DNA of 64,000 bases from a virus, in IMG/VR virus record IMGVR_UViG_3300044712_001218, positions 1 through 64,000 of that record; one strand, given 5' to 3'. A program made the translations under genes and the position numbers. This document shows positions 14,321 to 28,511 of the stretch, piece after piece. Under the pieces are notes generated by a model. It was not told the origin of the DNA. It did not search any database and saw nothing but the letters and a program-made list of their open reading frames with translations. Numbering within the stretch: position 1 is the first letter of the stretch; each line of letters begins with the position of its first letter.

Positions 14321-15852
14321 TTGAAAGGAAACTTATACAGGGTCTTATTATATCCACCCAATTCATTCAGCGTATTTATCAACACTGGAACATCCAGTTA
14401 ATTGAATCATCTGCTGCAAAAAGATTGGCTTCATGGATCATTATTTATTACGAGCAGTATAATAAAGCCCCGGGCAAGGATATAGAAGGAATATTCCTTG
14501 AACGGGCAAGACTACTTGCTCCTGATCTTGCAGAAGATATTGAAAATATATTAGCAGAATTAAGTGATGAGTTTGAAGAGGAAGGATTAAACATAGATTA
14601 TTTAGTAGACCAAACCATAAAATATTTTAATGAACGTTCCCTCACTATTTTATGTGATCAGATACAGGCTAATCTACAAAATGGTGATTTAATTGAAGCA
14701 GAAAAACTAGCTATTGGGTATAAGAATATACAAAAGCAGACTGGTACATGGGTTGATCTAGGTTCTCCGGAGGTAATGGAAAAGATTGACCAAGCTTTTG
14801 ATATAAGCAACCAAGTGCTTATAAAATATCCACGAGCATTAGGAGAATTTTGGAATGATCAGCTGGTTAGGGGTGGCTTTGTTGCACTCATGGCTCCTGA
14901 AAAACGCGGCAAAACCTTTTGGTTGCTTGATCTTGCTATCCGAGCAGCAAGACAAGGCAGGAGAGTGGCATTCTTTCAAGCAGGAGATATGAGCGAAGGA
15001 CAGCAATTAAAGCGGATTGGTGTTTATCTGACTAAAAAGAGCAATATTGAGAAGTATTCCGGAAAGATGTTTGAACCGGTAAAGGATTGTATATTTAACC
15101 AGATGGGTACCTGTAAGAAAAAAGAAAGGGAATGTGACTCAGCTGTTTTTGAAGGAAGGACGGAAAAGGAATTAAGAAGAGAAATTACCATTGATGAGTT
15201 AAAAGAGGCCTATGAAGAGAATCCTGATTATTCTGCCTGTACTAATTGTGCGGAATATGAAGGTTCCAAATGGGGGTGTGTTTGGTTAAAGGAAGTTAAT
15301 ACCGGGGCTCCCTTAACCAGTACAGAAGCCAAGGAAGCGGTAGGGGAATTCTTCGCCAAAGAATCAAGAAACTTTAGATTATCCACTCATGTCAACGGTA
15401 CCTTAACCGTCAGGGAAGCCTCCTCTATTCTGGAGATATGGGAAAGGCAGGATAATTTTGTGCCTGATGTCATTCTCTTTGACTACGCTGACATTATGAT
15501 GGATAATGATCATACCAAAGAATTCCGACATAAACAGAATAACATATGGATGCAGCTTAGGGGATTATCACAGGAAAGATTTGCTTTGGTTATTACCGCT
15601 ACTCAGGCTGACGCTAACAGTTATACCAAGGATTTATTAAAACTGGAAAACTTCTCAGAGGACAAAAGGAAATATGCTCATGTAACCGCTATGTATGGCC
15701 TTAACCAAGATCATAATGGAAGGGAGAAGGCAATAGGTATTATGAGAATAAATGAGTTGGTGGTAAGGGAAGGAGACTTTAACAATAAGAATCAGATTAA
15801 CGTACTACAGAATCTTAAAAGAGGCATTCCATTCATTGGGAGCTATTGGTGA
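14317..15852 (+). CDS. dnaB: DnaB-like replicative helicase
   Basis: APEKRGKT Walker A, DYAD, TATQA motifs; Cys-rich insertion. Confidence 0.85.
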   Translation: MIERKLIQGLIISTQFIQRIYQHWNIQLIESSAAKRLASWIIIYYEQYNKAPGKDIEGIFLERARLLAPDLAEDIENILAELSDEFEEEGLNIDYLVDQTIKYFNERSLTILCDQIQANLQNGDLIEAEKLAIGYKNIQKQTGTWVDLGSPEVMEKIDQAFDISNQVLIKYPRALGEFWNDQLVRGGFVALMAPEKRGKTFWLLDLAIRAARQGRRVAFFQAGDMSEGQQLKRIGVYLTKKSNIEKYSGKMFEPVKDCIFNQMGTCKKKERECDSAVFEGRTEKELRREITIDELKEAYEENPDYSACTNCAEYEGSKWGCVWLKEVNTGAPLTSTEAKEAVGEFFAKESRNFRLSTHVNGTLTVREASSILEIWERQDNFVPDVILFDYADIMMDNDHTKEFRHKQNNIWMQLRGLSQERFALVITATQADANSYTKDLLKLENFSEDKRKYAHVTAMYGLNQDHNGREKAIGIMRINELVVREGDFNNKNQINVLQNLKRGIPFIGSYW

Positions 15853-15875
15853 AAATTAATTTAATAAATAAAATT

Positions 15876-16895
15876 ATGAAAGTAGAGGTAAAAGTAAAAG
15901 ATTTATTTCCTAATCCATATCGTAATATGAAAGAATATCCAGTGGATAGAGAAAAAATAGAAGCCCTTAAAAACTCAATAGAACAAACTGAATTTTGGGA
16001 TAATTTAGTAGCAAGAAAAGAAAATGGACAAATTCAAATTGCTTATGGTCATCATAGATTGATAGCTTTACAAGAGTTAGAGATAGAAAAAATCGGAATT
16101 ACTATAAGAGATTTAGATGATTCCACAATGCTTCAAATAATGGCCAATGAAAATATGGAGCAATGGAGTAGTTCTACTTCTGTAGTAATTGAAACCGTCA
16201 AAGCTACCCGGGATTTTCTAAACTCGGAATTGGCGAAGTATGATAGCTGGGAGGAATTTAGAGCTAATAGATTTATTAGCTCACTTATTGATGGTGAAAG
16301 AGGTTATAGAAGTGCTAAAGGGCAAGGTGTCGGTCAAACCACCATCCTCAAGTTCTTAGGGAAGAACTGGGAAAAGAAACAACATTTGATTCAGGATGCG
16401 TTGCATACATTGGATCTTATCAAAGATGATATAATTGATGAAAAGGCGATAAAACAATTAGAGGTAAAACATTTAAAAGAATTTACCTCCAACGTTGAAA
16501 AAAATAAGACATCAAAAAAAGACCAAGTAAAATATGCTAAAATAATAAAAGAGGAAGAAGTAAAAGCAAATAAAGTTAAAGATATTTTTGTGCGAGAAAA
16601 ATATGAAACACCTAAAAAAAATAAACTAGAATTAGATAATAGAAAAATAAAATTTGAGGATATAATAGCAGAAACAACTAATAATGCTGATGAATTATCT
16701 GAAAAACTAAAAATAATAATAAAATATAAAGAAGATTTTGATTCTGTTTACTATAGACAAACTATAGAGCGTCTTCGATTATTAATGAGTATAGATTCAT
16801 TAAAAAAACAATTTGTAATATTAACTAAACAAATAAAAGAATATGAAGAAGAAACCGTCACTGGAGAAGATGATACTCTCCGTATTGGAAGATGA
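15876..16895 (+). CDS. ParB/Srx N-terminal domain protein
   Basis: PNPYR, L..SI...., IAYGHHRL.A, ANEN. Confidence 0.8.
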   Translation: MKVEVKVKDLFPNPYRNMKEYPVDREKIEALKNSIEQTEFWDNLVARKENGQIQIAYGHHRLIALQELEIEKIGITIRDLDDSTMLQIMANENMEQWSSSTSVVIETVKATRDFLNSELAKYDSWEEFRANRFISSLIDGERGYRSAKGQGVGQTTILKFLGKNWEKKQHLIQDALHTLDLIKDDIIDEKAIKQLEVKHLKEFTSNVEKNKTSKKDQVKYAKIIKEEEVKANKVKDIFVREKYETPKKNKLELDNRKIKFEDIIAETTNNADELSEKLKIIIKYKEDFDSVYYRQTIERLRLLMSIDSLKKQFVILTKQIKEYEEETVTGEDDTLRIGR

Positions 16896-17297: not shown

Positions 17298-17654
17298 ATG
17301 TTTAAAATAAGAAAAGAGTTTACTTTTTCAGCCAGCCATCAACTCAGAGGATTACCGGAAACACATCCCTGCAGTAGGCTTCATGGACATAATTACATAG
17401 TTACGGTGGAATTAAAATCTACCCATGTGAGTGATATTGGTTTTGTAAGGGATTATCATGAACTGGATGAAATAAAAAAGTATATTGATACCAAGTGGGA
17501 TCATAGACATTTAAACGATCAAATGTTGGATAATCCTACTGCTGAGAATATGGCCCAGCATCTTTTCATGACCTTTAAATCTCAGTTCCCGGAACTCTGT
17601 GCTATTGAAGTAAGTGAAACCCCCAAAACAAATGCCATTTATTATGAGTTTTGA
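17298..17654 (+). CDS. queD: 6-carboxytetrahydropterin synthase
   Basis: FSASH, CSRLHGHNY, WDHRHLN, PTAENMA, ETP. Confidence 0.95.
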   Translation: MFKIRKEFTFSASHQLRGLPETHPCSRLHGHNYIVTVELKSTHVSDIGFVRDYHELDEIKKYIDTKWDHRHLNDQMLDNPTAENMAQHLFMTFKSQFPELCAIEVSETPKTNAIYYEF

Positions 17655-18408
17655 AATAATTAAAGCAAACCCTGACTTTAAGAAGGAAGCTCCTTTTTCC
17701 AGCAATTTCTTAGAAGTAGCAGAATTCTTTTGCGATACCATACAAGGAGAAAATTTTATTGGTTATCCAGCAGCCTTTCTCAGACTTCAAAACTGTACAT
17801 TAAACTGTGCGTGGTGTGACACTAGTGAAGTCTGGAGATATGGGAACCCTTATTCCTTTGATGAAATATTTGAGTTAATGGATCAGGCCGACCTACCAAG
17901 AAAGCTCCACGATGGTCAACATCTTATTTTAACCGGTGGTAGTCCATTAAAACAACAAATCCCATTAATTAATTTTATTGATGCCTTTATTACCTTATAC
18001 GGATTTGGGCCTTATATTGAAGTGGAAAATGAATGTGTAGTAAGGCCCCTTGATAGGATGATAAATTATGTGGATTGTTGGAATAATTCCCCTAAACTAT
18101 CTACCAGTGGTAATCCAAAGAGTAAAAGATATAAACCAGAGATATTGAAGATAATGTCTGAACTGGATAATTCTTGGTTTAAGTTTGTAATCACGGAAGA
18201 ATCAGATGACGATTGGAATGAAATAGTAACTGATTATTTAGACCCCGGTCTTATAAGAAAAGACCAAATCGTACTGATGCCATGCGGAGCTACCAAATTA
18301 GAGTTAGAGGAAAATAGGCAAAGGGTAGTTGATCTGGCAGTGGAATTCAACGTACGATATACAAGCCGCGAACATATAATTTTGTGGGATAAACGTACTG
18401 GCGTATGA
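17644..18408 (+). CDS. queE: 7-carboxy-7-deazaguanine synthase (radical SAM)
   Basis: TIQGE, FLRL, CTLNCAWCDT, LTGG, SPKL. Confidence 0.92.
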   Translation: MSFEIIKANPDFKKEAPFSSNFLEVAEFFCDTIQGENFIGYPAAFLRLQNCTLNCAWCDTSEVWRYGNPYSFDEIFELMDQADLPRKLHDGQHLILTGGSPLKQQIPLINFIDAFITLYGFGPYIEVENECVVRPLDRMINYVDCWNNSPKLSTSGNPKSKRYKPEILKIMSELDNSWFKFVITEESDDDWNEIVTDYLDPGLIRKDQIVLMPCGATKLELEENRQRVVDLAVEFNVRYTSREHIILWDKRTGV

Positions 18409-18809: not shown

Positions 18810-19604
18810 ATGGCAACATTAAAACAGTTGAAAGCAGCAGCAGTAGAAATGAATGACGTAATGTCATTAAATCCTCCTATTGATGTTAAGTTGGCAGAAG
18901 ACGAACTGACTGAGAAGATTAAGGAAGCTATCGGTATTATGGAACCGGAAGATGAATTCGGAGAAGCCACTCAGGCAGTTATTGATGAGCTCAGTGCCAA
19001 GAAAGCTAAACCCGCTCGTGGCAAAGCAGCCAAAGAAGAAGAACCGGAAGAGGAAGAAGAACCTGTCGAAGAAGCTGAAGAAGCAGAGGAAGAACCTGAA
19101 GCTGAAGAAGCAGAGGAAGAACCTGAAGCTGAAGAAGAACCGGAAGAAGATGATCTGACCACTCAGGTGGAAGATGCTGAAAAGCTCAGTGAATTGAAAG
19201 ACCTTGCCAAGGAGAATGAGGAATTCAAACCTCTCCGTAGCAAACTGAGTTCTTATAAGACAGCATCCGAACTGAGAAAGGAAATGCTGAAGCTTCTGGA
19301 GAAACCGGCAAAGAAAGCAGCTCCTAAGGAAGCAGCTAAAGCAGAGAAGAAGGCTGAAAAGAAAGAGAAAAAGGAACCTAAGGAAAAAGGCCCGGGCGTA
19401 ATCGCTACGATCGTGGACATTCTGGAGAAGGCAGGAAAGAAAGGAATCACCAAGGAAGAAATCCATGCCAAACTCGTTCCTATGTTCCCTGACAAATCAC
19501 CTGACTCTTTAAAAGCTACCATTTCCGTTCAGGTTCCTTATCGCGTTAACAAAGAGCGCTGGGAAGTTGTTAAGTTGGAAGGTGGTCGTTTTGCCAAGAA
19601 GTAA
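18810..19604 (+). CDS. Acidic/basic low-complexity protein with C-terminal winged-helix-like domain
   Basis: E-rich 9-aa repeats, K/A-rich linker, GVIATIVDIL...ITKEEIHAKL...FPD. Confidence 0.75.
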   Translation: MATLKQLKAAAVEMNDVMSLNPPIDVKLAEDELTEKIKEAIGIMEPEDEFGEATQAVIDELSAKKAKPARGKAAKEEEPEEEEEPVEEAEEAEEEPEAEEAEEEPEAEEEPEEDDLTTQVEDAEKLSELKDLAKENEEFKPLRSKLSSYKTASELRKEMLKLLEKPAKKAAPKEAAKAEKKAEKKEKKEPKEKGPGVIATIVDILEKAGKKGITKEEIHAKLVPMFPDKSPDSLKATISVQVPYRVNKERWEVVKLEGGRFAKK

Positions 19605-19616
19605 TTATTGCTCCCG

Positions 19617-20342
19617 ATGCGTAAAGTGGTCATAGGCTTAAGCGGAGGGATGGATTCGGCCACCCTACTGGGGTATTACCTCAGTTTGGGTGCCGAAGTC
19701 CATTGTTGTTCTTTCTATTATGGTTCTAAACATGGTCAATGGGAAGGCAGAGCAGCCAATAATCTGTTTGAATTTTATAATCAAAGAGGCTTTCCGATCA
19801 TCCGTCATTTCTTTGACTTAAGATCAGTGTTTACGAATTTTCAATCTAATCTCCTCAAATCAGGAGGAGCTATCCCTGAAGGACATTATGATGATGAGAG
19901 CATGCGTTTGACCGTTGTGCCGGGGAGAAATATGATTTTTGCTTCCATTATGGCAGGACTGGCAGAATCTATAAAAGCAGATACTATTGCCCTTGGGGTT
20001 CATTCTGGAGATCATCATATATACCCTGATTGCCGACCTGAATTCATTCGTGCTTTAATGGATACTATTGAATTCTCCACTGATGGTGGAGTAAGAGTAG
20101 AAGCTCCTTTTATCTATGAAGACAAATCAACCATACTTAAAATGGGGTATGGTTTTGAACAAAATGTTCCATATCAACTCACCCGTACCTGTTATAAAGA
20201 TCAGGAGAAGAGTTGTGGAAAATGTGGTTCATGTACAGAAAGAATATTTGCATTTAATGAATTAGGATTACAAGATCCCATTCCTTATGAAAATGATTGG
20301 AATATTGTTTTAAAAACTGCTTTAGCTCTAAAAGGAGAATAA
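19617..20342 (+). CDS. queC: 7-cyano-7-deazaguanine (preQ0) synthase
   Basis: LSGGMDS, VPGRNMIF, YPDCRPEF, TCY...CGKCGSC.ER. Confidence 0.96.
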   Translation: MRKVVIGLSGGMDSATLLGYYLSLGAEVHCCSFYYGSKHGQWEGRAANNLFEFYNQRGFPIIRHFFDLRSVFTNFQSNLLKSGGAIPEGHYDDESMRLTVVPGRNMIFASIMAGLAESIKADTIALGVHSGDHHIYPDCRPEFIRALMDTIEFSTDGGVRVEAPFIYEDKSTILKMGYGFEQNVPYQLTRTCYKDQEKSCGKCGSCTERIFAFNELGLQDPIPYENDWNIVLKTALALKGE

Positions 20343-20345
20343 AAT

Positions 20346-21071
20346 ATGCCTAATCCCAAAGATCCTATAAAACTTGCCGAATATAAAGAGAATATGAGAA
20401 ATATTGCTCTTGAAAAAGGGTATGGTAAATGGATGAAAGGACGTAAAAATACTCCCGGAGCTTTAGCATTGAATTTATATATTAAATCAATTAAAGGAGA
20501 ATTAATTAAAATGAGGAGAATCCACTATTGTATAGTATGTGGCTCCTCATTTTATGATTATCCTTATAAAAAAGGTTTAAAATTTTGTTCAAAAAGCTGT
20601 TATTTGATAAATCATAAAAAATTACCAGAAGAAATTATTATCAAATTAATAAAAGCTGGTAAAAGATTACATCCAAAAAATGAGAGAATTTCAAATAATG
20701 GATTTGCTAATCCTGAGAATAGAAAAGGGAAAACATATAACGAAATATATGGAGATGATGCAGAAAAAGAAAAATTAAAAAGAAGTTTAGGCCATTTAAA
20801 AAGATTTAAAAATAAACTTAGAAATGGATGTCGTGATAAAATAAATGGGGAAACTAAATATAAAATTTGGAGGAATACCATTTTTAAAAGAGACAATTAT
20901 ACTTGTGTTGATTGTGGAAAAAAGGGAGGAAAATTACATGCTCATCATATTTATAATTGGGCCAAGAATCCTAAGTTAAGATATAGAACTTCCAATGGAA
21001 TAACTTTATGTACTAAATGCCATTCAGAAAAACACCCAAACATTAAAAAATTAATATTAAGTAATTCTTAA
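20346..21071 (+). mobile_element. Free-standing HNH homing endonuclease
   Basis: RDNYTCVDCG...LHAHHI...NGITLCTKCH; very A-rich; sits between queC and folE. Confidence 0.85.
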
Positions 21072-21075
21072 AATT

Positions 21076-21951
21076 ATGAATAAACTATATTTAACTTGGG
21101 AAGACGTAATGAATAAATTACGCACCGTAGACTTATTAAATAAAAAGGTCTACGGTGTCCCTAATGGCGGTATGATTGCTGCCGGATTCCTTAATTATGC
21201 CAAGAAGGTATATAAACCGGAATTTGCTGATATTATTCTTGATGATATTATTGATTCCGGAGGGACACAGAAGTGGTATAAGAAACAATTTCCCGATACC
21301 GTTTTTCATGCCTTATTTGATAAACAACTGGATCCTCAACTTCATGATCAGTGGGTAGTTTTTCCATGGGAAGCTCAACATCCTAATGGTGAGAATACAG
21401 TTCAGCATAATATTATCAGACAGCTCCAGTATATTGGAGAAGATGTTAATAGGGAAGGATTATTGAAAACTCCTGATAGAGTAGTAAAGATGTGGGGTGA
21501 AATCTTTTCCGGATATGATAAAGATGCCAAAGAACTTCTTACCACCTTTGATGCTGACGGTTATGCTGATCATTATGATGAGATTGTACTATTGAAGGAC
21601 ATTGAAGTTTATTCCATGTGTGAACATCACATGCTGCCTTTCTTCGGTAAAGCTCATGTAGCCTATATTCCTGGAAAAAAGATTGTAGGTATAAGTAAAC
21701 TGGCAAGACTGGTAGATATGTATGCTAGAAGACTTCAAATACAAGAGCGTATTGGTGATCAGGTCACTTCGAGCATTATGGAGTTATTAGAACCAAAAGG
21801 AGCTGCTTGCATAATAGAGGCAACTCATATGTGTATGCGGATGAGAGGAGTTCAGAAGCAGAACTCTATTATGACTACCTCCAGCATGAAGGGAGCCTTC
21901 TTGGATAAGCCGGCCGCTCGTAATGAACTCATGGAATTAATACGGCGATGA
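21076..21951 (+). CDS. folE: Phosphoribosyltransferase-like domain fused to GTP cyclohydrolase I
   Basis: N-terminal [21 protein letters not shown]; C-terminal [37 protein letters not shown]. Confidence 0.93.
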
Positions 21952-23000
21952 ATATTTATACCGCTGGGAATGTAGGAATAATTTCCCGTGAAAAAGCCTT
22001 AAGTAAGGTTATCCTTAGAAGACTATTATCCTTCTATGAAATACATGGGAAATTATTCGCTGCAGACCAATCATTTGAATTTATAACTAAAAAAATGGAA
22101 AGAAATAAAAAGGTAGAATTGTTTTTGGATTCAGGGGCTTTCTCTGCTTGGAGCCAAGGGGTTTCTATTGATATTAATGATTATATCCAATTTATCAAGG
22201 AAAATATGGCCGTAATAGGCATTTATGCCAATCTGGATGTCATTGGAGATGTCAGGGCAACTTGGAACAATCAAAAGATAATGGAGGCGGCAGGATTAAA
22301 GCCATTGCCCGTATTTCATTATGGGGAGGATGAAAAGTGGCTTGAGCGATTACTACGTCAGGGTTATGATTATATCAGTTTAGGAGGCATGGTTCCGATC
22401 AGTACAGATAATCTTATCCTTTGGTTGGATAGAATCTATTCCAAATATCTTACGGATTCAAAAGGAATGCCTTGTGTAAAAGTACATGGTTTTGGTCTTA
22501 CCAGTTTAAGACTAATGTTACGCTATCCTTGGTTCTCAGTTGATTCTACCAGTTGGGTAGTAACAGGGAGGATGGGAGGAATTTATATTCCACGTTTTCA
22601 TCATGGTCAATGGATGTATGATGAGAATTCATGGAAGGTGACTGTTTCAGGAAGAAGTCCTAACAAAATAAGTAAAGGAAAACATATATTGACTATGAAT
22701 ATTCTTGAGAAAAAAGTATTTATGGATTATATAGAAATGAAGGGATACGCTATCGGTAAGTCAGAATTTAAAAAAGTTGATCAATCACATAAATTAGAAA
22801 AGAATGAAAAGTGGATTGATAAAAAGCCATCCAATAAAACAGTTAAAAGAGAAATGGAAATTATACTGGAACCTGGTATTTCTAATACTTACCAGTTACG
22901 TGATGAAATGAATATAGTATTTTTTAATGATCTTGAAAAAAGTATGCAATCATGGCCATGGTCTTTTAAAACAAAAAGTCAGAATTCAATATTTAATTAA
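21948..23000 (+). CDS. dpdA: DpdA-like DNA 7-deazaguanine transglycosylase (TGT fold)
   Basis: [33 protein letters not shown]; adjacent to que genes. Confidence 0.8.
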
Positions 23001-23025
23001 TCATAAACCTTTAAACATTAATCAT

Positions 23026-23875
23026 ATGTCAATAAAAGGAGCTAATTTTAGGTTAACTCGGGATTTAACTATACAAAATCCTGATTGGTCTTTAAGAAAA
23101 GTACGTTCTGTGATGGAAAGTAGAGGAGAAATAATTGAAAATGAAGCTTATCATTTATCCAGAACTCTTAGAAAATTCTTTAAAAAGTCTTTAAAGACAA
23201 AAGGAATTGTAAATGCTATTAAAGGAAATTATATTCCCGGAATCTCTAAAAATGATCTTATAGAAAAATTAAAAGAACAACAATTTGATGTATTTAAGCT
23301 TAGTGATACTATAACAAAACAATTTAATAATCTCAGGAGATGTGAAGAAGGATTTATAAAGCATGGTTATTGTATAAAGGAGGATAAATAAAATGACAAA
23401 GAGACAGGAAGATTGGGAAAAAGCACAGGAGAAGAGGGATGAGACTGCCAATGATCTTAACTTTTATCTACTCATCTCCGGACTATCATTCAAAAGAGTG
23501 GATGATACCATTCATTATCAGTTAAATTCAAAGAATGGAAAGAATATTCCTTTTATATTTATGTACAAAGATAGTGGTGGATTCTATCTCAAAGTACCTA
23601 AGGAATTTCTGGATAATCCGGTAACCTACTTAGATCATCTGATAAAAGAAAACTACTACTCTATCATAGTAGATGGGGAAAATAGGGAATATACGGTTCC
23701 TATTAGTTTTATGACCATCAAGAAATACTGGAAATGGAAAATGGAGACTTCGGAAGGAAATAAAAATAGAATGCAATTCCGTAGTTTAATAGGAAGAATG
23801 ACCTATCGTAGACCACTGGAAGGTTCTGCTTTTTCTCCATGCCTTGTTGATGAACTAAATAAACTCTTATCATGA
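23026..23875 (+). CDS. Two hypothetical proteins (23026-23391, 23393-23875)
   Basis: ORF track; in operon. Confidence 0.65.
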
Positions 23876-24048
23876 ACATCTATTTGAGTACATGGTTAAC
23901 AGATCGTTCCCTTGGAAACAGTATGACTAAGAAGAAAGCATCCAAACGATTGCTATCATATTTTTTCCTGAAGGAGCAGGATATTTCACAAGAACATTTT
24001 GATGAATACGTAGAGACTGGGAGATGTGATCCTAGGAAAAGAAAATGA
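23872..24048 (+). CDS. Mini-protein resembling the DpdA N-terminus, copy 1 (58 aa)
   Basis: MNIYLS...KRLLSYFF; ATGA overlaps on both sides. Confidence 0.65.
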   Translation: MNIYLSTWLTDRSLGNSMTKKKASKRLLSYFFLKEQDISQEHFDEYVETGRCDPRKRK

Positions 24049-24227
24049 AAATCTATTTAGCCGGAGTACCAAAAGCCTATGGGAAATTACCCTATAAGGT
24101 ACTTTTTAGTTACTTTACTATTAAATATCCTGACCAGAAATGGGGAGCTAAATCTAATTTTAACTATTATACCAATGAAAATATACTTAGCAGCAGTTTG
24201 GCCTCCCAATCATCTGAAGATAACTAA
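24045..24227 (+). CDS. Mini-protein resembling the DpdA N-terminus, copy 2 (60 aa)
   Basis: MKIYLAG...KVLFSYF. Confidence 0.65.
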   Translation: MKIYLAGVPKAYGKLPYKVLFSYFTIKYPDQKWGAKSNFNYYTNENILSSSLASQSSEDN

Positions 24228-24369
24228 ACGAGTTCTGCTTAGTTATTATGATTTAGATGTATCTACAATACCTTTTAGAAATGAAACCTTTAATACTATA
24301 ACCAATGCTAATAAACAAAAACGACCTCTTACACGCCTTAGAAGTAGTAAAACCGGGCTTAGCCAGTAA
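24175..24369 (+). CDS. Mini-protein resembling the DpdA N-terminus, copy 3 (64 aa)
   Basis: MKIYLAA...RVLLSYY. Confidence 0.6.
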   Translation: MKIYLAAVWPPNHLKITKRVLLSYYDLDVSTIPFRNETFNTITNANKQKRPLTRLRSSKTGLSQ

Positions 24370-25357
24370 AGAAATCATTGAACAGGCTACTTCCTTTGCC
24401 TTTATGGATAATCGGGTAGTAACCTATAATGATGAAATAAGTATTTCTCACCCAGTAAAAGACCTTGATGTTACTGGGGCAGTAAAAGCAGATAAGCTCT
24501 ACCAATTTTTAGGTAAGGTAAAGATTGATGAGATTGAGATTGTAGAAGAAGATAATGCCATTACTCTTACTACCGGTAAAGCTAAAGCTGGATTAGCAAT
24601 GCAGGCTGAAATTAAACTACCTCTTGATCAGGTAGGAGATATTGAAGACTGGGAAGATTTGCCGGAAAACTTTATAGAGGCCTTAAAGTTTGTCTATCCT
24701 TCCTGTGGACATGATATGAGCCGACCCCTGTTAACCTGCGTCCATGTCAACCATGATGGATTTATAGAGGGTAGTGATAGCAATTGTATCACCCGTTATA
24801 CTCTGGAAGAATTTTCCTTTGATACCTTTTTATTACCTTCGAGTTCAGCATCAACTGTAGTAAAGCTTAACCCTACTCAAATATCGCTCGGGAAATCATG
24901 GGTACATTTTAAAACAGAGGATGACAGTATTATATCCTGCCGTATCTTTAGCAATAAGGATAAGTTTGTAGATACTACTCCATTTCTTGATGTGGAAGGA
25001 ATTGAGGTGACTCTTCCGGAAGCTATCACAGAAATAATGGATAGGGCTATGGTTTTTGCCAAGCAGGATCACCAGCTGGATGAAACCATTAAGATCACTC
25101 TGAAAGAAAGTAGGATGATAATGGAATGTAAATCAGAATCTGATAATTCCTGGTTTAGGGAGGAAGCAAGAATGAGATATAAACAGGATCCATTAACTTT
25201 CTTTATCACTCCTTATTTGCTTAACTGGATTATATCAAAGACAAAGGATTGTACTATTGCTGAAGATCGTTTGTGTTTTAAGAGTCCAGCAAAGGAAGAA
25301 GGAGATACCTCTGGTGATTGGATTTATGTAACGGCTTTGAAAAATAAGATTGACTGA
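24305..25357 (+). CDS. dnaN: DNA sliding clamp (beta-clamp-like)
   Basis: 350 aa; MLINKNDLLHAL N-terminus, D.SRPLLTCVH, GSD motif; replication context. Confidence 0.75.
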   Translation: MLINKNDLLHALEVVKPGLASKEIIEQATSFAFMDNRVVTYNDEISISHPVKDLDVTGAVKADKLYQFLGKVKIDEIEIVEEDNAITLTTGKAKAGLAMQAEIKLPLDQVGDIEDWEDLPENFIEALKFVYPSCGHDMSRPLLTCVHVNHDGFIEGSDSNCITRYTLEEFSFDTFLLPSSSASTVVKLNPTQISLGKSWVHFKTEDDSIISCRIFSNKDKFVDTTPFLDVEGIEVTLPEAITEIMDRAMVFAKQDHQLDETIKITLKESRMIMECKSESDNSWFREEARMRYKQDPLTFFITPYLLNWIISKTKDCTIAEDRLCFKSPAKEEGDTSGDWIYVTALKNKID

Positions 25358-26199
25358 TGATCAGGGGATACAGCTTAATAAGTCTCGGGGTAGGAGTTCA
25401 GAGTTCTGCTCTCTACTATATGAGTTCTATGGGAATTCTACCAAGAATAAATATGGCAATCTTTGCCGATACTGGTGGAGAGAAGTCTAAAACTCTGGAG
25501 TATTTACAATACCTGCAAAAGTGGAAGAAGGATAATAATGGAATACCAATTCATGTGGCAAATTTCATTAATCTGGAGAATGACTTATTAAGGGAGGATG
25601 AAGGCAGATTTTCTTCTATTCCGGCTTTTACTCTTAATGAAGATGGAGAGAAAGGAATGCTCAGACGTCAATGTACCGGAGAATATAAAATAGCCCAGAT
25701 TAACAAGAAGTATCGAGAGCTGATGAAACTGGGTAATAAGTATTTCCCTAAAACAGAAGTGTGGATAGGAATTACTCAGGAGGAGAAAGATAGAATGGCC
25801 ATCCCGCTGGAGCAGTGGAAAATAAATGTATATCCTTTCTGTGGATATAAGATTTATCACGATGGTCACTTTGAGCTATTTCCAGGTTTTGAATCAACCC
25901 GTACTTCTATTCTTTCGTGGTATAAGGAGAATAATCTTCCAATCCCTGAGAAGTCTTCCTGTAAATTTTGCCCATTTCATGGCTACAATAGCTGGAAGAG
26001 ACTTAAGGAGATAAGTCCTAGTGATTTTGAAGATGCCTGTAAAGTGGATGATAAGATAAGACATTCATCCATGAAAGGAGTTAAGAATCCTATCTATCTC
26101 CACGAGTCTTTAAAACCACTAAGAGAAGTAAAATTTAATACCCGTACCATTGGATTCTTTGATGATCACGGTAATTGTTCTGATAATTGTGGAATATGA
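25357..26199 (+). CDS. PP-loop / PAPS-reductase-family protein
   Basis: SLGVGVQSS, ADTGGE, RQCT..YKI, KSSCKFCPF. Confidence 0.7.
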   Translation: MIRGYSLISLGVGVQSSALYYMSSMGILPRINMAIFADTGGEKSKTLEYLQYLQKWKKDNNGIPIHVANFINLENDLLREDEGRFSSIPAFTLNEDGEKGMLRRQCTGEYKIAQINKKYRELMKLGNKYFPKTEVWIGITQEEKDRMAIPLEQWKINVYPFCGYKIYHDGHFELFPGFESTRTSILSWYKENNLPIPEKSSCKFCPFHGYNSWKRLKEISPSDFEDACKVDDKIRHSSMKGVKNPIYLHESLKPLREVKFNTRTIGFFDDHGNCSDNCGI

Positions 26200-28511
26200 G
26201 CGGATTTTTTACAAAAAAGGAAACTGAATCAAAGACTAGACCAGATGGTCGAAATCTTTCCTGTATTTCTTGTGGACTTTATAAGAATTGTAATTCCCCT
26301 AGAATGAATCCTTATGGTGAATTCAAAAAGGGAATTATGGTGGTTGGAGAAGCCCCGGGAGAAATAGAAGATAGCCGGGGTAAACCTTTTCAGGGAAAGA
26401 CTGGGAAGCTTCTTCAAAGAACTTTGGCAAAGTATGGAATAGATTTATTTGAAGATTGTGTTAGTTTAAACTCAGTTAATTGCCGGCCGGAGGATAATAG
26501 AACTCCTAGTACTTATGAAATGGATTGTTGTAGATCAGTCAAAGTAACCAAAGCTATTGAGCAATATAAACCAAAGATCATAATTGTACTTGGTGGAAGT
26601 GCCTTATATAGCATAATAGGAAATAGATGGAAAAAGGAATTGGGTGGAATAACGAAATGGAGAGGGTTTTGTATTCCGGATCAAGATTTGCATTCGTGGG
26701 TTTGTCCGGTATTCCACCCATCTTTTGTCGAACGTGATGATACCGGAGTAGCTCAGGTAGTATGGGAAAATGATCTGCAGGAAATATTTAAACTGATTGA
26801 GGATAAAGTTCCTTTCCCAATTTATAAGAAACCTAAAATTGAAATAATAGATGATCTGCAGATTCTTGATACTATCAAATCTACCAGAATCGCCTTTGAT
26901 TATGAGACTACCGGATTAAAACCTCATGGATTAGGACAGGAAATAGTATGTTGTTCAATAGCTCCTTCATCAAATATGGCCTACTCCTTTATGATGCCAT
27001 CTACAAGGATAGAGAGGATGCCATTCATTAGACTCTTACGGAATCCACTAATTGAGAAAATGGCACATAATTGTTTACATGCACGATCATTAGTATTAAT
27101 GGCAGATGGAAGTAAGAAATATATAAGTTATTTAGTCAATAATAAAATTAAAGACCCGGTATTGTGCTTTAATACAAAAACAAAGAAGATTGAAGAAAAA
27201 CCTATAATAAATTGGTATAAAGAAGAAGATTCTAAAGTGATTTGGAAAAAAGTAATTACAAAAAATAGTATTAATGGAAAACAATCACATTGCTTAACTA
27301 ATGACCATAAAGTATACACTATTGAAAGAGGAATGGTAAAAGTAGATGATTTAAAAATAGGAGAAAATCTTTTAATAAAAAAAGAAGGACTATCTGATAT
27401 TCAATTGCAATTAATATTAGGGAGTGGATTAGGTGATGGGAGTATAGTTTTAAATAAGAAAAATAATAAGGCAAAAAATGCATATTTTGTAGTTACACAT
27501 GGGGAAAAACAAGAACAATATATAAAATGGAAAAGAAAAATATTAAATAATATAAGTGATGATGTAAAGAAGAAAAATAATAATAAAGGATTTAGTAGAA
27601 AAGATGGAATATCTTACGCTTTTCATACTAAATCTCTACCAGAAATCACCCCATTAAGAAGACAACTATATAGTAGAAATGGAAAGAAAATAATAACAGA
27701 AACATATCTTAATAAATTAGAACCATTAGCATTAGCAGTGTGGTATATGGATGATGGTTCTGTTTATAAAACAAATATGAATTTACATATTGCCGGATAT
27801 TCAGAAACCTCTTGTGAAAAAATAATTGAATATTTTGCTAAAAAATATGAAATATATTTTAGATTAGAAAGAGATTCATTTAATAAACCAAGAACTTTAC
27901 ATTTGGGTAAAAAAGCAGGAGGTTATAAATTTTGTGAATTAATAGCGCCATATATTCATGATGATTTAAAATATAAAATTCCAAAATATTATAAAAAGGA
28001 GGTGGGAAAATTAGTAAATAAAGTAATTAATAGTCAAAAGAATTATACCCAATCAGAAATTACTGATATAATTGATTCTGTTCCAAGAATGTCTAAAAAG
28101 ATTAAATTTTGTATAGAGGTTCCTGATAACCATAATTTCTTTACAACTATGGGATTAGTGAGTAATTGCAAATATGAAGAAACATGGAGTGCTGTTAAAC
28201 TTAGACAACCGGTAAAGAATTGGATTTGGGATACTATGTTAGCAGCCCATATATTTGATAATCGACCGGGGATAACCAATCTGAAGATTCAAACTTATCT
28301 TATGTTTGGAATCATTGATTATGCCAGTGAAGTTTCTCCCTACTTAGAAGGAGTAGGAGAGGGAGGGAATTCGTTAAATAGAATAAAGGAGTTATTGAAA
28401 CTTCCCGGTGGAAAAGTTAAAGTATTAACTTATTGTGGATATGATTCAGTATATCAATATAGATTAGCAGAATTACAAATGTCAAAAACTAATTTTGACT
28501 TGCCCTTTTAG
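26196..28511 (+). CDS. Split DNA polymerase, N-part: family-4 UDG-like domain plus 3'-5' exonuclease, containing an intein
   Basis: CxxC..C, GEAPG, CRP..NR.P, FHPS (UDG); FDYETTG, AHN^CKYE, YCGYD (Exo I-III). Confidence 0.88.
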   Translation: MSGFFTKKETESKTRPDGRNLSCISCGLYKNCNSPRMNPYGEFKKGIMVVGEAPGEIEDSRGKPFQGKTGKLLQRTLAKYGIDLFEDCVSLNSVNCRPEDNRTPSTYEMDCCRSVKVTKAIEQYKPKIIIVLGGSALYSIIGNRWKKELGGITKWRGFCIPDQDLHSWVCPVFHPSFVERDDTGVAQVVWENDLQEIFKLIEDKVPFPIYKKPKIEIIDDLQILDTIKSTRIAFDYETTGLKPHGLGQEIVCCSIAPSSNMAYSFMMPSTRIERMPFIRLLRNPLIEKMAHNCLHARSLVLMADGSKKYISYLVNNKIKDPVLCFNTKTKKIEEKPIINWYKEEDSKVIWKKVITKNSINGKQSHCLTNDHKVYTIERGMVKVDDLKIGENLLIKKEGLSDIQLQLILGSGLGDGSIVLNKKNNKAKNAYFVVTHGEKQEQYIKWKRKILNNISDDVKKKNNNKGFSRKDGISYAFHTKSLPEITPLRRQLYSRNGKKIITETYLNKLEPLALAVWYMDDGSVYKTNMNLHIAGYSETSCEKIIEYFAKKYEIYFRLERDSFNKPRTLHLGKKAGGYKFCELIAPYIHDDLKYKIPKYYKKEVGKLVNKVINSQKNYTQSEITDIIDSVPRMSKKIKFCIEVPDNHNFFTTMGLVSNCKYEETWSAVKLRQPVKNWIWDTMLAAHIFDNRPGITNLKIQTYLMFGIIDYASEVSPYLEGVGEGGNSLNRIKELLKLPGGKVKVLTYCGYDSVYQYRLAELQMSKTNFDLPF
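27072..28166 (+). mobile_element. Intein (365 aa) with LAGLIDADG endonuclease
   Basis: Starts CLHARSLVLMADG; block B LTNDHKV; LGSGLGDG and WYMDDG; ends HNFFTTMGLVSN followed by Cys. Confidence 0.92.

Follow-up and report, generated by a model that had tools for sequence, protein, structure and literature searches.

Free-standing genes for a predicted quarter of the DpdA barrel in phage 7-deazaguanine DNA modification loci

Results

Three short genes downstream of dpdA

The window analysed here, the first 64 kb (64,000 nucleotides) of the 73.4-kb IMG/VR virus record IMGVR_UViG_3300044712_001218, which is rated complete, carries a gene for the DNA-modifying enzyme DpdA and, 0.87 kb downstream of the end of that gene (23000), an array of three short genes, here called mini1, mini2 and mini3, that match the N-terminal module of DpdA. 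Phages use DpdA to replace guanine in their DNA with a 7-deazaguanine, and DpdA enzymes set how much of a phage genome, and in which contexts, is hidden from restriction enzymes. The window DpdA (21948-23000, + strand; phrog_887, expectation value (E) 5e-57) is a 350 amino acid (aa) protein of the long form, consisting of an N-terminal module, predicted below to be a quarter of a barrel, and a catalytic core, and is 39-42% identical to DpdA of cultured phages. Between dpdA and the array lie two open reading frames (ORFs): orfX (22927-23391, +), for which no relatives were found, and orfY (23393-23875, +), which encodes 160 aa of unknown function, with homologues in 9 related loci and no Pfam or PHROG family.

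The mini genes are tightly packed on the + strand. Mini1 (23872-24048, 58 aa, the 'type A' family) overlaps the stop codon of orfY with its start codon in an ATGA, and mini2 (24045-24227, 60 aa) overlaps mini1 in the same way. Mini3 (24175-24369, 64 aa) is nested, starting 53 nucleotides (nt) within mini2 and running 65 nt into a gene for a sliding-clamp-like DNA polymerase processivity factor (24305-25357, +; phrog_947, E 1e-22). Its start is an internal ATG of a longer ORF (24079-24369) and was placed at 24175 because called public homologues also begin at MKIYLAA. The three ORFs thus read from the window just as an original prediction, made from the sequence alone, had given them, including their N-terminal sequences and the overlapping stop and start codons of mini1 and mini2. 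In all nine related loci the orfY homologue likewise stands between dpdA and a downstream mini-gene array, and orfY may belong to the same system.

The original prediction had also held that the minis copy the DpdA N-terminal module. A hidden Markov model (HMM) was built from the N-termini of the 48 long-form DpdA homologues used among the 120 best, with the window protein excluded, and was run against the 1659 pieces of 20 aa or more in the six-frame translation of the window. DpdA itself ranked first (E 9e-15), followed by mini2 (7.6e-5), mini1 (2.2e-4) and mini3 (0.012), with the next piece at 0.1. A second profile, to which free-standing copies from other contigs were added, separated them further (DpdA 2.3e-17, mini1 2.8e-11, mini2 5.8e-9, mini3 6.4e-8; next piece 0.055). 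The similarity is therefore significant, the minis taking ranks 2-4 of the 1659 pieces and being the only window sequences besides DpdA that match the profile. At the DNA level the copies are as diverged as had been stated: over their first 105 nt, pairwise identity was 0.57-0.62, compared with 0.55-0.57 (standard deviation 0.03) in shuffled sequence. Since their DNA is no more alike than shuffled sequence, the module copies are old paralogues and not a recent repeat.

The whole 73.4-kb genome holds one DpdA core, with no second DpdA-like core that could be an alternative partner of the minis, and no module copy beyond DpdA and the three minis at the profile thresholds used. None of the three window minis, nor any of 10 other module types, matched a curated family (Pfam-A, PHROGs) below E 0.05, and a tblastn search of mini1 against 50,697 phage records at E<=1 gave no match. 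The ESM Atlas contains a sequence identical to mini1, without a model, and querying it with mini1 gave no usable match. At 58-64 aa the minis end before strand 3 of the barrel and lack the catalytic core of a DpdA/TGT enzyme; judged from their sequence, they are not enzymes by themselves.

The module is predicted to be the first quarter of the barrel

The AlphaFold2 model of the window DpdA (predicted local distance difference test score (pLDDT) 87.9, predicted template modelling score (pTM) 0.84) places two strand-helix units in the fused module, residues 1-49 (21948-22094, +): β1 at residues 2-5, α1 at 12-18, β2 at 24-28 and α2 at 39-51. Six further strand-helix units follow, and without strands 2-5 and 24-28 the model would fall short of eight barrel strands. 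Residues 1..335 of the model align to residues 40..363 of Zymomonas mobilis TGT (Z 17.5, root mean square deviation 3.5 Å, 246 residues). Because residue 1 aligns at TGT residue 40, the module is identified in the models as β1-α1-β2-α2 of the DpdA/TGT (βα)8 TIM barrel, and the claim that it comprises the first strands of a TGT-type barrel holds in the predicted structures. In the models the module is not a lid or accessory domain; PMC10164549 describes the N-terminal lid of TGTs as absent from bacterial DpdA.

The family-invariant residues D61, D97, H180-G181 and D199 all lie after residue 56, in the core only, and there is no catalytic residue within the module. Module types vary most after strand 1 and after strand 2. 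In bacterial DpdA, the loop between β1 and α1 (Ins1) helps form the DNA-binding surface and the loop between β2 and α2 (Ins2) flanks the active site, according to PMC10164549.

Long, short and permuted forms of DpdA

The 120 best DpdA homologues include 56 long forms and 61 short forms of about 300 aa, which start a few residues before strand 3. A methionine lies 8-16 residues before the DSG motif in 56/56 long forms, against about 25% expected by chance, and this is the position at which the 61 short forms start. In the window dpdA it is Met50 (22095-22097, +), a candidate internal start codon. The cultured DpdA1 proteins of Escherichia phage CAjan and Microcystis phage Me-ZS1 have no methionine at the module/core junction.

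A third arrangement was found in L002, a relative recovered via its clamp gene. Its DpdA (L002:574-1572) starts at strand 3, and its C-terminal segment, directly before the clamp gene, carries the same two module motifs. The C-terminal module characterises a subfamily (P0121-P0193) of 73 of the 75 proteins examined by eye. The AlphaFold2 model of L002 DpdA (pLDDT 92.3) shows six strands followed by C-terminal strand 283-287, helix 292-304, strand 311-316 and helix 317-332. Residue 1 of this protein aligns to residue 82 of bacterial DpdA (7ui4; Z 13.0) and to TGT at residue 91 (Z 12.2), about 50 residues later than the alignment start of the window DpdA, and MetF, another TIM barrel, aligns over the whole chain. 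The models thus present this subfamily as a circular permutation of the barrel, a call that rests on by-eye alignment together with models, the C-terminal modules being missed by the first-pass profile (E 3).

The catalytic body (strands 3-8) and the first quarter are therefore separable parts in this clade, the quarter being fused N-terminally, fused C-terminally or encoded by a gene of its own of about 55-60 aa. Short-form DpdA genes should not be read as truncated.

Free-standing modules across related loci

The original prediction had treated the arrangement as particular to this locus and had proposed running a profile of the motif across dpdA neighbourhoods. Six-frame translations were scanned for 80 loci with a DpdA alignment and 5 with a clamp; having been picked by similarity to the window DpdA, these loci describe one clade. 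The first pass gave 205 significant matches, all on the dpdA strand, with 38 fused to DpdA and 167 free-standing. The free-standing matches were mostly full length (128/167), with a median ORF of 59 aa, and lay both upstream (55) and downstream (106) of the core. With the second profile there were 285 matches in 78/85 loci, again all on the dpdA (+) strand and within about 2.5 kb of dpdA. Far from being a peculiarity of the window, the arrangement is the norm in a large metagenomic clade.

A core was present in 77 loci (65 clusters at 95% identity), 33 of which have no fused module. Adequate flanks were defined as at least 1.5 kb upstream and 2.5 kb downstream. Among unfused loci with such flanks, free modules occurred in 22/22, and in 11 of these downstream only; among fused loci with such flanks, extra free modules occurred in 36/37. 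The mean number of free modules per locus was 3.05 in fused and 3.9 in unfused loci. Split DpdA, a module-less core gene plus a module gene, is thus found in the relatives, the core gene of the window having a fused module. Module genes that are the immediate upstream neighbours of short core genes overlap or adjoin them in another frame (5/5 junctions examined), which suggests the arrangement typical of subunit genes. The module type that is fused in the window DpdA is a free gene in three relatives (L010, L011 and L013).

In addition, many module genes in the related loci contain (AG)n tracts, which encode a conserved R-E-R-E stretch. There are 34 (AG)5-8 tracts in the 806 kb of loci, all on the + strand, and 33/34 fall inside the module regions (7% of the bases). 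In about half of the tracts there is a frame break at exactly that place (15 flagged by script and 3 with split matches); examples are L012:5010-5019, L018:209-222 and 374-383, L037:4993-5008, L068:6280-6289 and L071:4709-4718. The pattern resembles the switching on and off of single modules by strand slippage; recurrent assembly error would be the other reading. The window's own modules have no (AG)n tract. Among public proteins matched by the mini1 profile, P0250, P0273 and P0248 contain two modules each in one ORF of 99-207 aa, and could be natural fusions or run-together gene calls.

Conservation of the mini genes

The mini1 cluster has 23 members in 23 loci, that is, 22 orthologues in other loci. 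In a search of 1.84 billion proteins, a profile of 21 members matched 329 representative clusters (E<=1e-3); of the 150 matches listed, 144 are shorter than 100 aa. Compared with its orthologues, mini1 has a proportion of nonsynonymous differences (pN) of 0.21-0.37 and a proportion of synonymous differences (pS) of 0.76-0.95. Mini3 has 6 called homologues in a collection of 5.8 billion proteins, with up to 66% identity.

The array of mini1, mini2, mini3 and clamp recurs in one relative, L075, complete with the ATGA junction and the nested starts. Compared with their L075 counterparts, mini1 of the window is 53% identical in aa (pN 0.36; pS of the minis 0.73-0.79), mini2 60% (pN 0.25, pS 0.73), and mini3 65% across the 43 codons that precede the clamp gene (pN 0.235, pS 0.735). 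The corresponding values are 56% (pN 0.29, pS 0.79) for the DpdA core and 51% (pN 0.31, pS 0.79) for the clamp. Conservation of the minis is thus on a par with that of the DpdA core and the clamp, and it extends to their tails beyond the module; for mini2 and mini3 this rests on few orthologues. Calculation of the ratio of nonsynonymous to synonymous substitution rates (dN/dS), which the original prediction had proposed as a check, succeeded in part: the ratio was about 0.11 where it was computable, and for most pairs saturated synonymous sites precluded one. With open frames kept at synonymous saturation and conservation like that of the core and the clamp, the view that these are maintained genes is upheld, and neutral decay is excluded.

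Predicted binding of mini1 to a module-less core

Binding of a mini to DpdA without its N-terminal module was examined by complex prediction, as had been proposed, with DpdA residues 50-350 (57-sequence alignment) and mini1 (21-sequence alignment) as inputs. Mini1 was predicted to bind, with an interface score from aligned errors (ipSAE) of 0.89, compared with 0.01 for the best of 3 controls. The ipSAE mark is reached by 58/80 solved complexes and 2/110 mismatched pairs, which is a rough guide, own alignments having been used. Contact agreement between runs was at least 98%, and the pLDDT of the partner was at least 84. In the predicted complex, residues 25-31 of mini1 pair with core strand 57-62 and residues 2-4 with core residues 197-199, and these contacts occupy the places of strands 2 and 1 in the model of the fused DpdA. 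The two strands of mini1, the mini covered by the prediction, are thus predicted to pair with barrel strands 3 and 8.

The surrounding modification cassette

The region around dpdA is a phage 7-deazaguanine DNA modification cassette, and from QueD to the polymerase all genes are on the + strand. Upstream lie genes of the preQ0 pathway: QueD, of the 6-pyruvoyl-tetrahydropterin synthase family (17298-17654, +; Pfam PTPS, E 6e-30), a probable QueE of the radical SAM type (17614-18408, +; weak matches to Pfam Fer4_12 and Radical_SAM, E ~3e-5) and, after two ORFs of unknown function, QueC (19608-20342, +; Pfam QueC, E 6e-50). One ORF in the interval between the probable QueE and QueC (18810-19604, 264 aa) has no Pfam match; parts of it are conserved upstream of dpdA in most related loci, and it is a candidate further 7-deazaguanine pathway gene. 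Between QueC and FolE, within the cassette, lies an HNH endonuclease gene (20346-21071, +), probably a mobile insertion. FolE itself, GTP cyclohydrolase I (21076-21951, +), matches Pfam GTP_cyclohydroI over residues 112-290 (E 4e-72). Its N-terminus (21076-21420) has about 110 extra residues with no Pfam match, which may resemble a phosphoribosyltransferase-type nucleotide-binding loop.

On the 3' side of the clamp gene there is a PAPS-reductase-like gene, followed by a gene (26187-28511) for a DNA polymerase with a uracil-DNA-glycosylase (UDG)-like domain joined to its start; the polymerase is interrupted by an intein with a LAGLIDADG endonuclease. The UDG-polymerase gene of L002 is without this insertion. 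Five kb upstream of dpdA, a gene at 15846-16895 encodes a protein with a ParB_N domain (E 9e-11). PMC10164549 describes DpdB, the partner of bacterial DpdA, as having a ParB-like N-terminal domain. The DGQQR motif of DpdB was not seen in the translation of 15846-16895, and no DpdB was identified in the window.

The G+C content of the window is 35.5%. Its DNA is present in rhizosphere metagenomes, and contigs of two such runs, one of them possibly the source, showed no differences from the window, the second run being without cover at 23658-24227; among the runs listed with this DNA there was no RNA run. A DNA search with 21948-25400 against the 50,697 phage records gave no match. A promoter and terminator scan of 21000-26500 gave the same result as shuffled sequences and found no + strand terminator between dpdA and the clamp, with consensus sequences that may not suit the host.

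Discussion

Closure of the barrel in trans

Our favoured explanation of these observations, which we consider probable, is that the minis are alternative quarter-barrel subunits (β1-α1-β2-α2) that close a module-less DpdA core in trans, giving several isoforms. Each of mini1, mini2 and mini3 would insert between strand 8 and strand 3 of the core and so complete the barrel. Here, translation of dpdA starting internally at Met50 would supply the core; a role of this codon as a start is suggested by the alignment of long and short forms. The outcome would be a set of DpdA isoforms that share one catalytic body and differ in the loops between β1 and α1 and between β2 and α2. Trans closure is the simplest reading because a short core that lacks two of the eight strands always has free modules at hand, and for mini1 the one complex prediction points the same way. 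By analogy with bacterial DpdA, the modules may tune which DNA contexts are modified or how completely, since there the Ins1 and Ins2 loops line the DNA-binding surface and flank the active site. The original prediction of interchangeable first-strand modules that alter specificity or regulate DpdA is thus supported in one part: comparative genomics and the complex prediction fit interchangeable use with the core, while any effect on specificity or regulation is surmised from loop position.

Several points weigh against trans closure. The window DpdA carries a fused module and closes its barrel unaided in the model, so free modules are not obviously needed in the window; nor are they simple compensation for a missing quarter, because nearly all fused loci with adequate flanks also carry extras. 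The minis lie 0.9 kb downstream of dpdA behind two unrelated ORFs and not beside the core, and the conserved methionine at the junction may owe its conservation to something else or go back to a fusion of genes. The complex prediction covers mini1 only. Pieces of one fold tend to pass such predictions through their likeness to solved structures and, since the TGT barrel has been solved as a single chain, the score may reflect memory of the fold. As there is no catalytic residue in the module, a specificity effect would be argued from bacterial DpdA, with which the phage enzyme has only the fold in common. DNA modification in cultured DpdA1 phages does without genes of this kind. Finally, all support is computational: the locus counts depend on the profile thresholds and on a regular expression for the core, and the first-pass profile missed mini1 and mini3 of L075 as well as the C-terminal modules.

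A bolder extension of trans closure, about which we are doubtful, would be a combinatorial enzyme in which one (βα)6 DpdA body is completed by one or another of 3-7 interchangeable (βα)2 quarters, some of them switched by (AG)n tracts in related phages. Each pairing would have a different specificity for the context of the 7-deazaguanine, giving broader protection from restriction, and among natural proteins of the present day this would be the first case of a TIM barrel built with a free quarter.

Among the other explanations, the one that survives best, although we regard it as unlikely, is that the minis bind DpdA, or a host barrel of the TGT/DpdA type, as regulators or decoys, keeping the core inactive up to a certain time, competing with the fused module or poisoning the host enzyme. 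Homology, conservation and the predicted interface would all be the same as under trans closure, and the module that the window DpdA already possesses gives extra copies something to compete with. However, in all 22 short-core loci with adequate flanks the free modules are the only source of strands 1 and 2, module genes overlap short core genes as subunit pairs do, and orthologues of the same module are fused in some phages and free in others.

Slightly less plausible again is that minis descended from a DpdA quarter now act apart from DpdA, either by forming a small barrel of their own or by binding the clamp through their hydrophobic L-x-x-Y-Y stretch. The array does stand directly before the clamp gene in the window and in L075, as does the C-terminal module in L002; with several modules in a genome, four of them in the window, a barrel made of modules is conceivable in principle, and 36/37 fused loci with adequate flanks carry free modules besides. 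Against this, the order dpdA-clamp is general even where there are no minis (CAjan, Me-ZS1), so that the position follows dpdA, and all 285 matches lie close to dpdA, in loci that were themselves chosen by dpdA. The two conserved motifs are, moreover, two barrel strands in the models. A reading of L-L-S-Y-Y as a clamp-binding motif like the PCNA-interacting-protein (PIP) box was set aside, the motif being a barrel strand in the models.

A reading of the minis as functionless remnants of duplication, or as silent cassettes that supply recombination at the 5' end of dpdA, which the original prediction had offered as an alternative, is very improbable: different module types are indeed fused to DpdA in different phages and frameshifts interrupt some modules in relatives, but all three minis have kept their ATG, open frame and length at synonymous saturation, match the DpdA core and the clamp in conservation, have conserved tails, share no DNA similarity in the window that could guide recombination, and are free-standing called genes in most relatives.

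If trans closure is right, these loci offer swappable natural barrel quarters that bear loops next to the DNA site, and make the question of what sets DpdA specificity directly testable. Within one clade the same two-strand unit occurs at the N-terminus or the C-terminus of a TIM barrel or as a gene of its own, states that correspond to the intermediates long postulated for a modular origin of the (βα)8 barrel and so far studied only in engineered proteins. Hundreds of 'hypothetical' phage ORFs of 50-70 aa also gain an annotation.

Comparison with known systems

The original prediction knew of no description of this arrangement, and our search of the literature on DpdA N-termini, split TGT and split TIM barrels agrees: we found no description of free DpdA modules, split or permuted DpdA, or natural quarter-barrels in the texts available, the supplements of the DpdA papers, which possibly mention N-terminal variation, lying outside them. 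These papers describe the subfamilies bDpdA and DpdA1-4 and a single-chain structure (PMC10516641, PMC10164549). The enzyme family is thus known, and the architecture, in which free barrel quarters form a multi-gene family and fused, permuted and split states occur, is undescribed.

The closest relatives are the DpdA1 enzymes of CAjan and Me-ZS1, which belong to the same family (39-42% identity) and show the same gene order FolE-DpdA-clamp-polymerase. Their N-termini match the module profile (E 2e-4 and 0.0098). Unlike the window clade, they are single chains with one fused module only, and no free-standing module genes were found in the 8.7 kb examined of each phage. Bacterial DpdA of S. Montevideo (PDB 7ui4) is likewise a TIM-barrel DNA preQ0 insertase and is the best structural match of the permuted L002 DpdA (Z 13.0); its Ins1 and Ins2 loops, described in PMC10164549, fall within its counterpart of the module. 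It differs in being a single chain for which free quarter-barrel partners are not known; DpdB, with which it works, is an ATPase and not a barrel fragment.

Two further systems resemble the modules in organisation. Type I restriction-modification enzymes have interchangeable HsdS specificity subunits, some of them phase-variable. If the modules do influence specificity, the analogy would lie in one catalytic body served by alternative small specificity parts, with (AG)n frame breaks in some of the related modules; HsdS, however, is a separate folded protein, whereas the modules are two strands of the catalytic barrel itself and their specificity role is putative. The archaeosine TGT of some archaea is also a TGT-family enzyme encoded by two genes. 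There the split falls between the catalytic domain and the C-terminal RNA-binding domains and is not known to lie inside the barrel, with one copy of each piece.

The nearest parallel to the division of the barrel itself comes from the laboratory. HisA/HisF half-barrel work reportedly addressed the evolution of TIM barrels from halves, and quarters are said to have been swapped in de novo TIM barrels. In such fragment complementation, and in the half- and quarter-barrel hypotheses, a (βα)8 barrel is likewise made from pieces cut between βα units, and circular permutation is tolerated. Those fragments are engineered or inferred to be ancestral, whereas the pieces described here are natural, present-day, multi-copy genes under selection.

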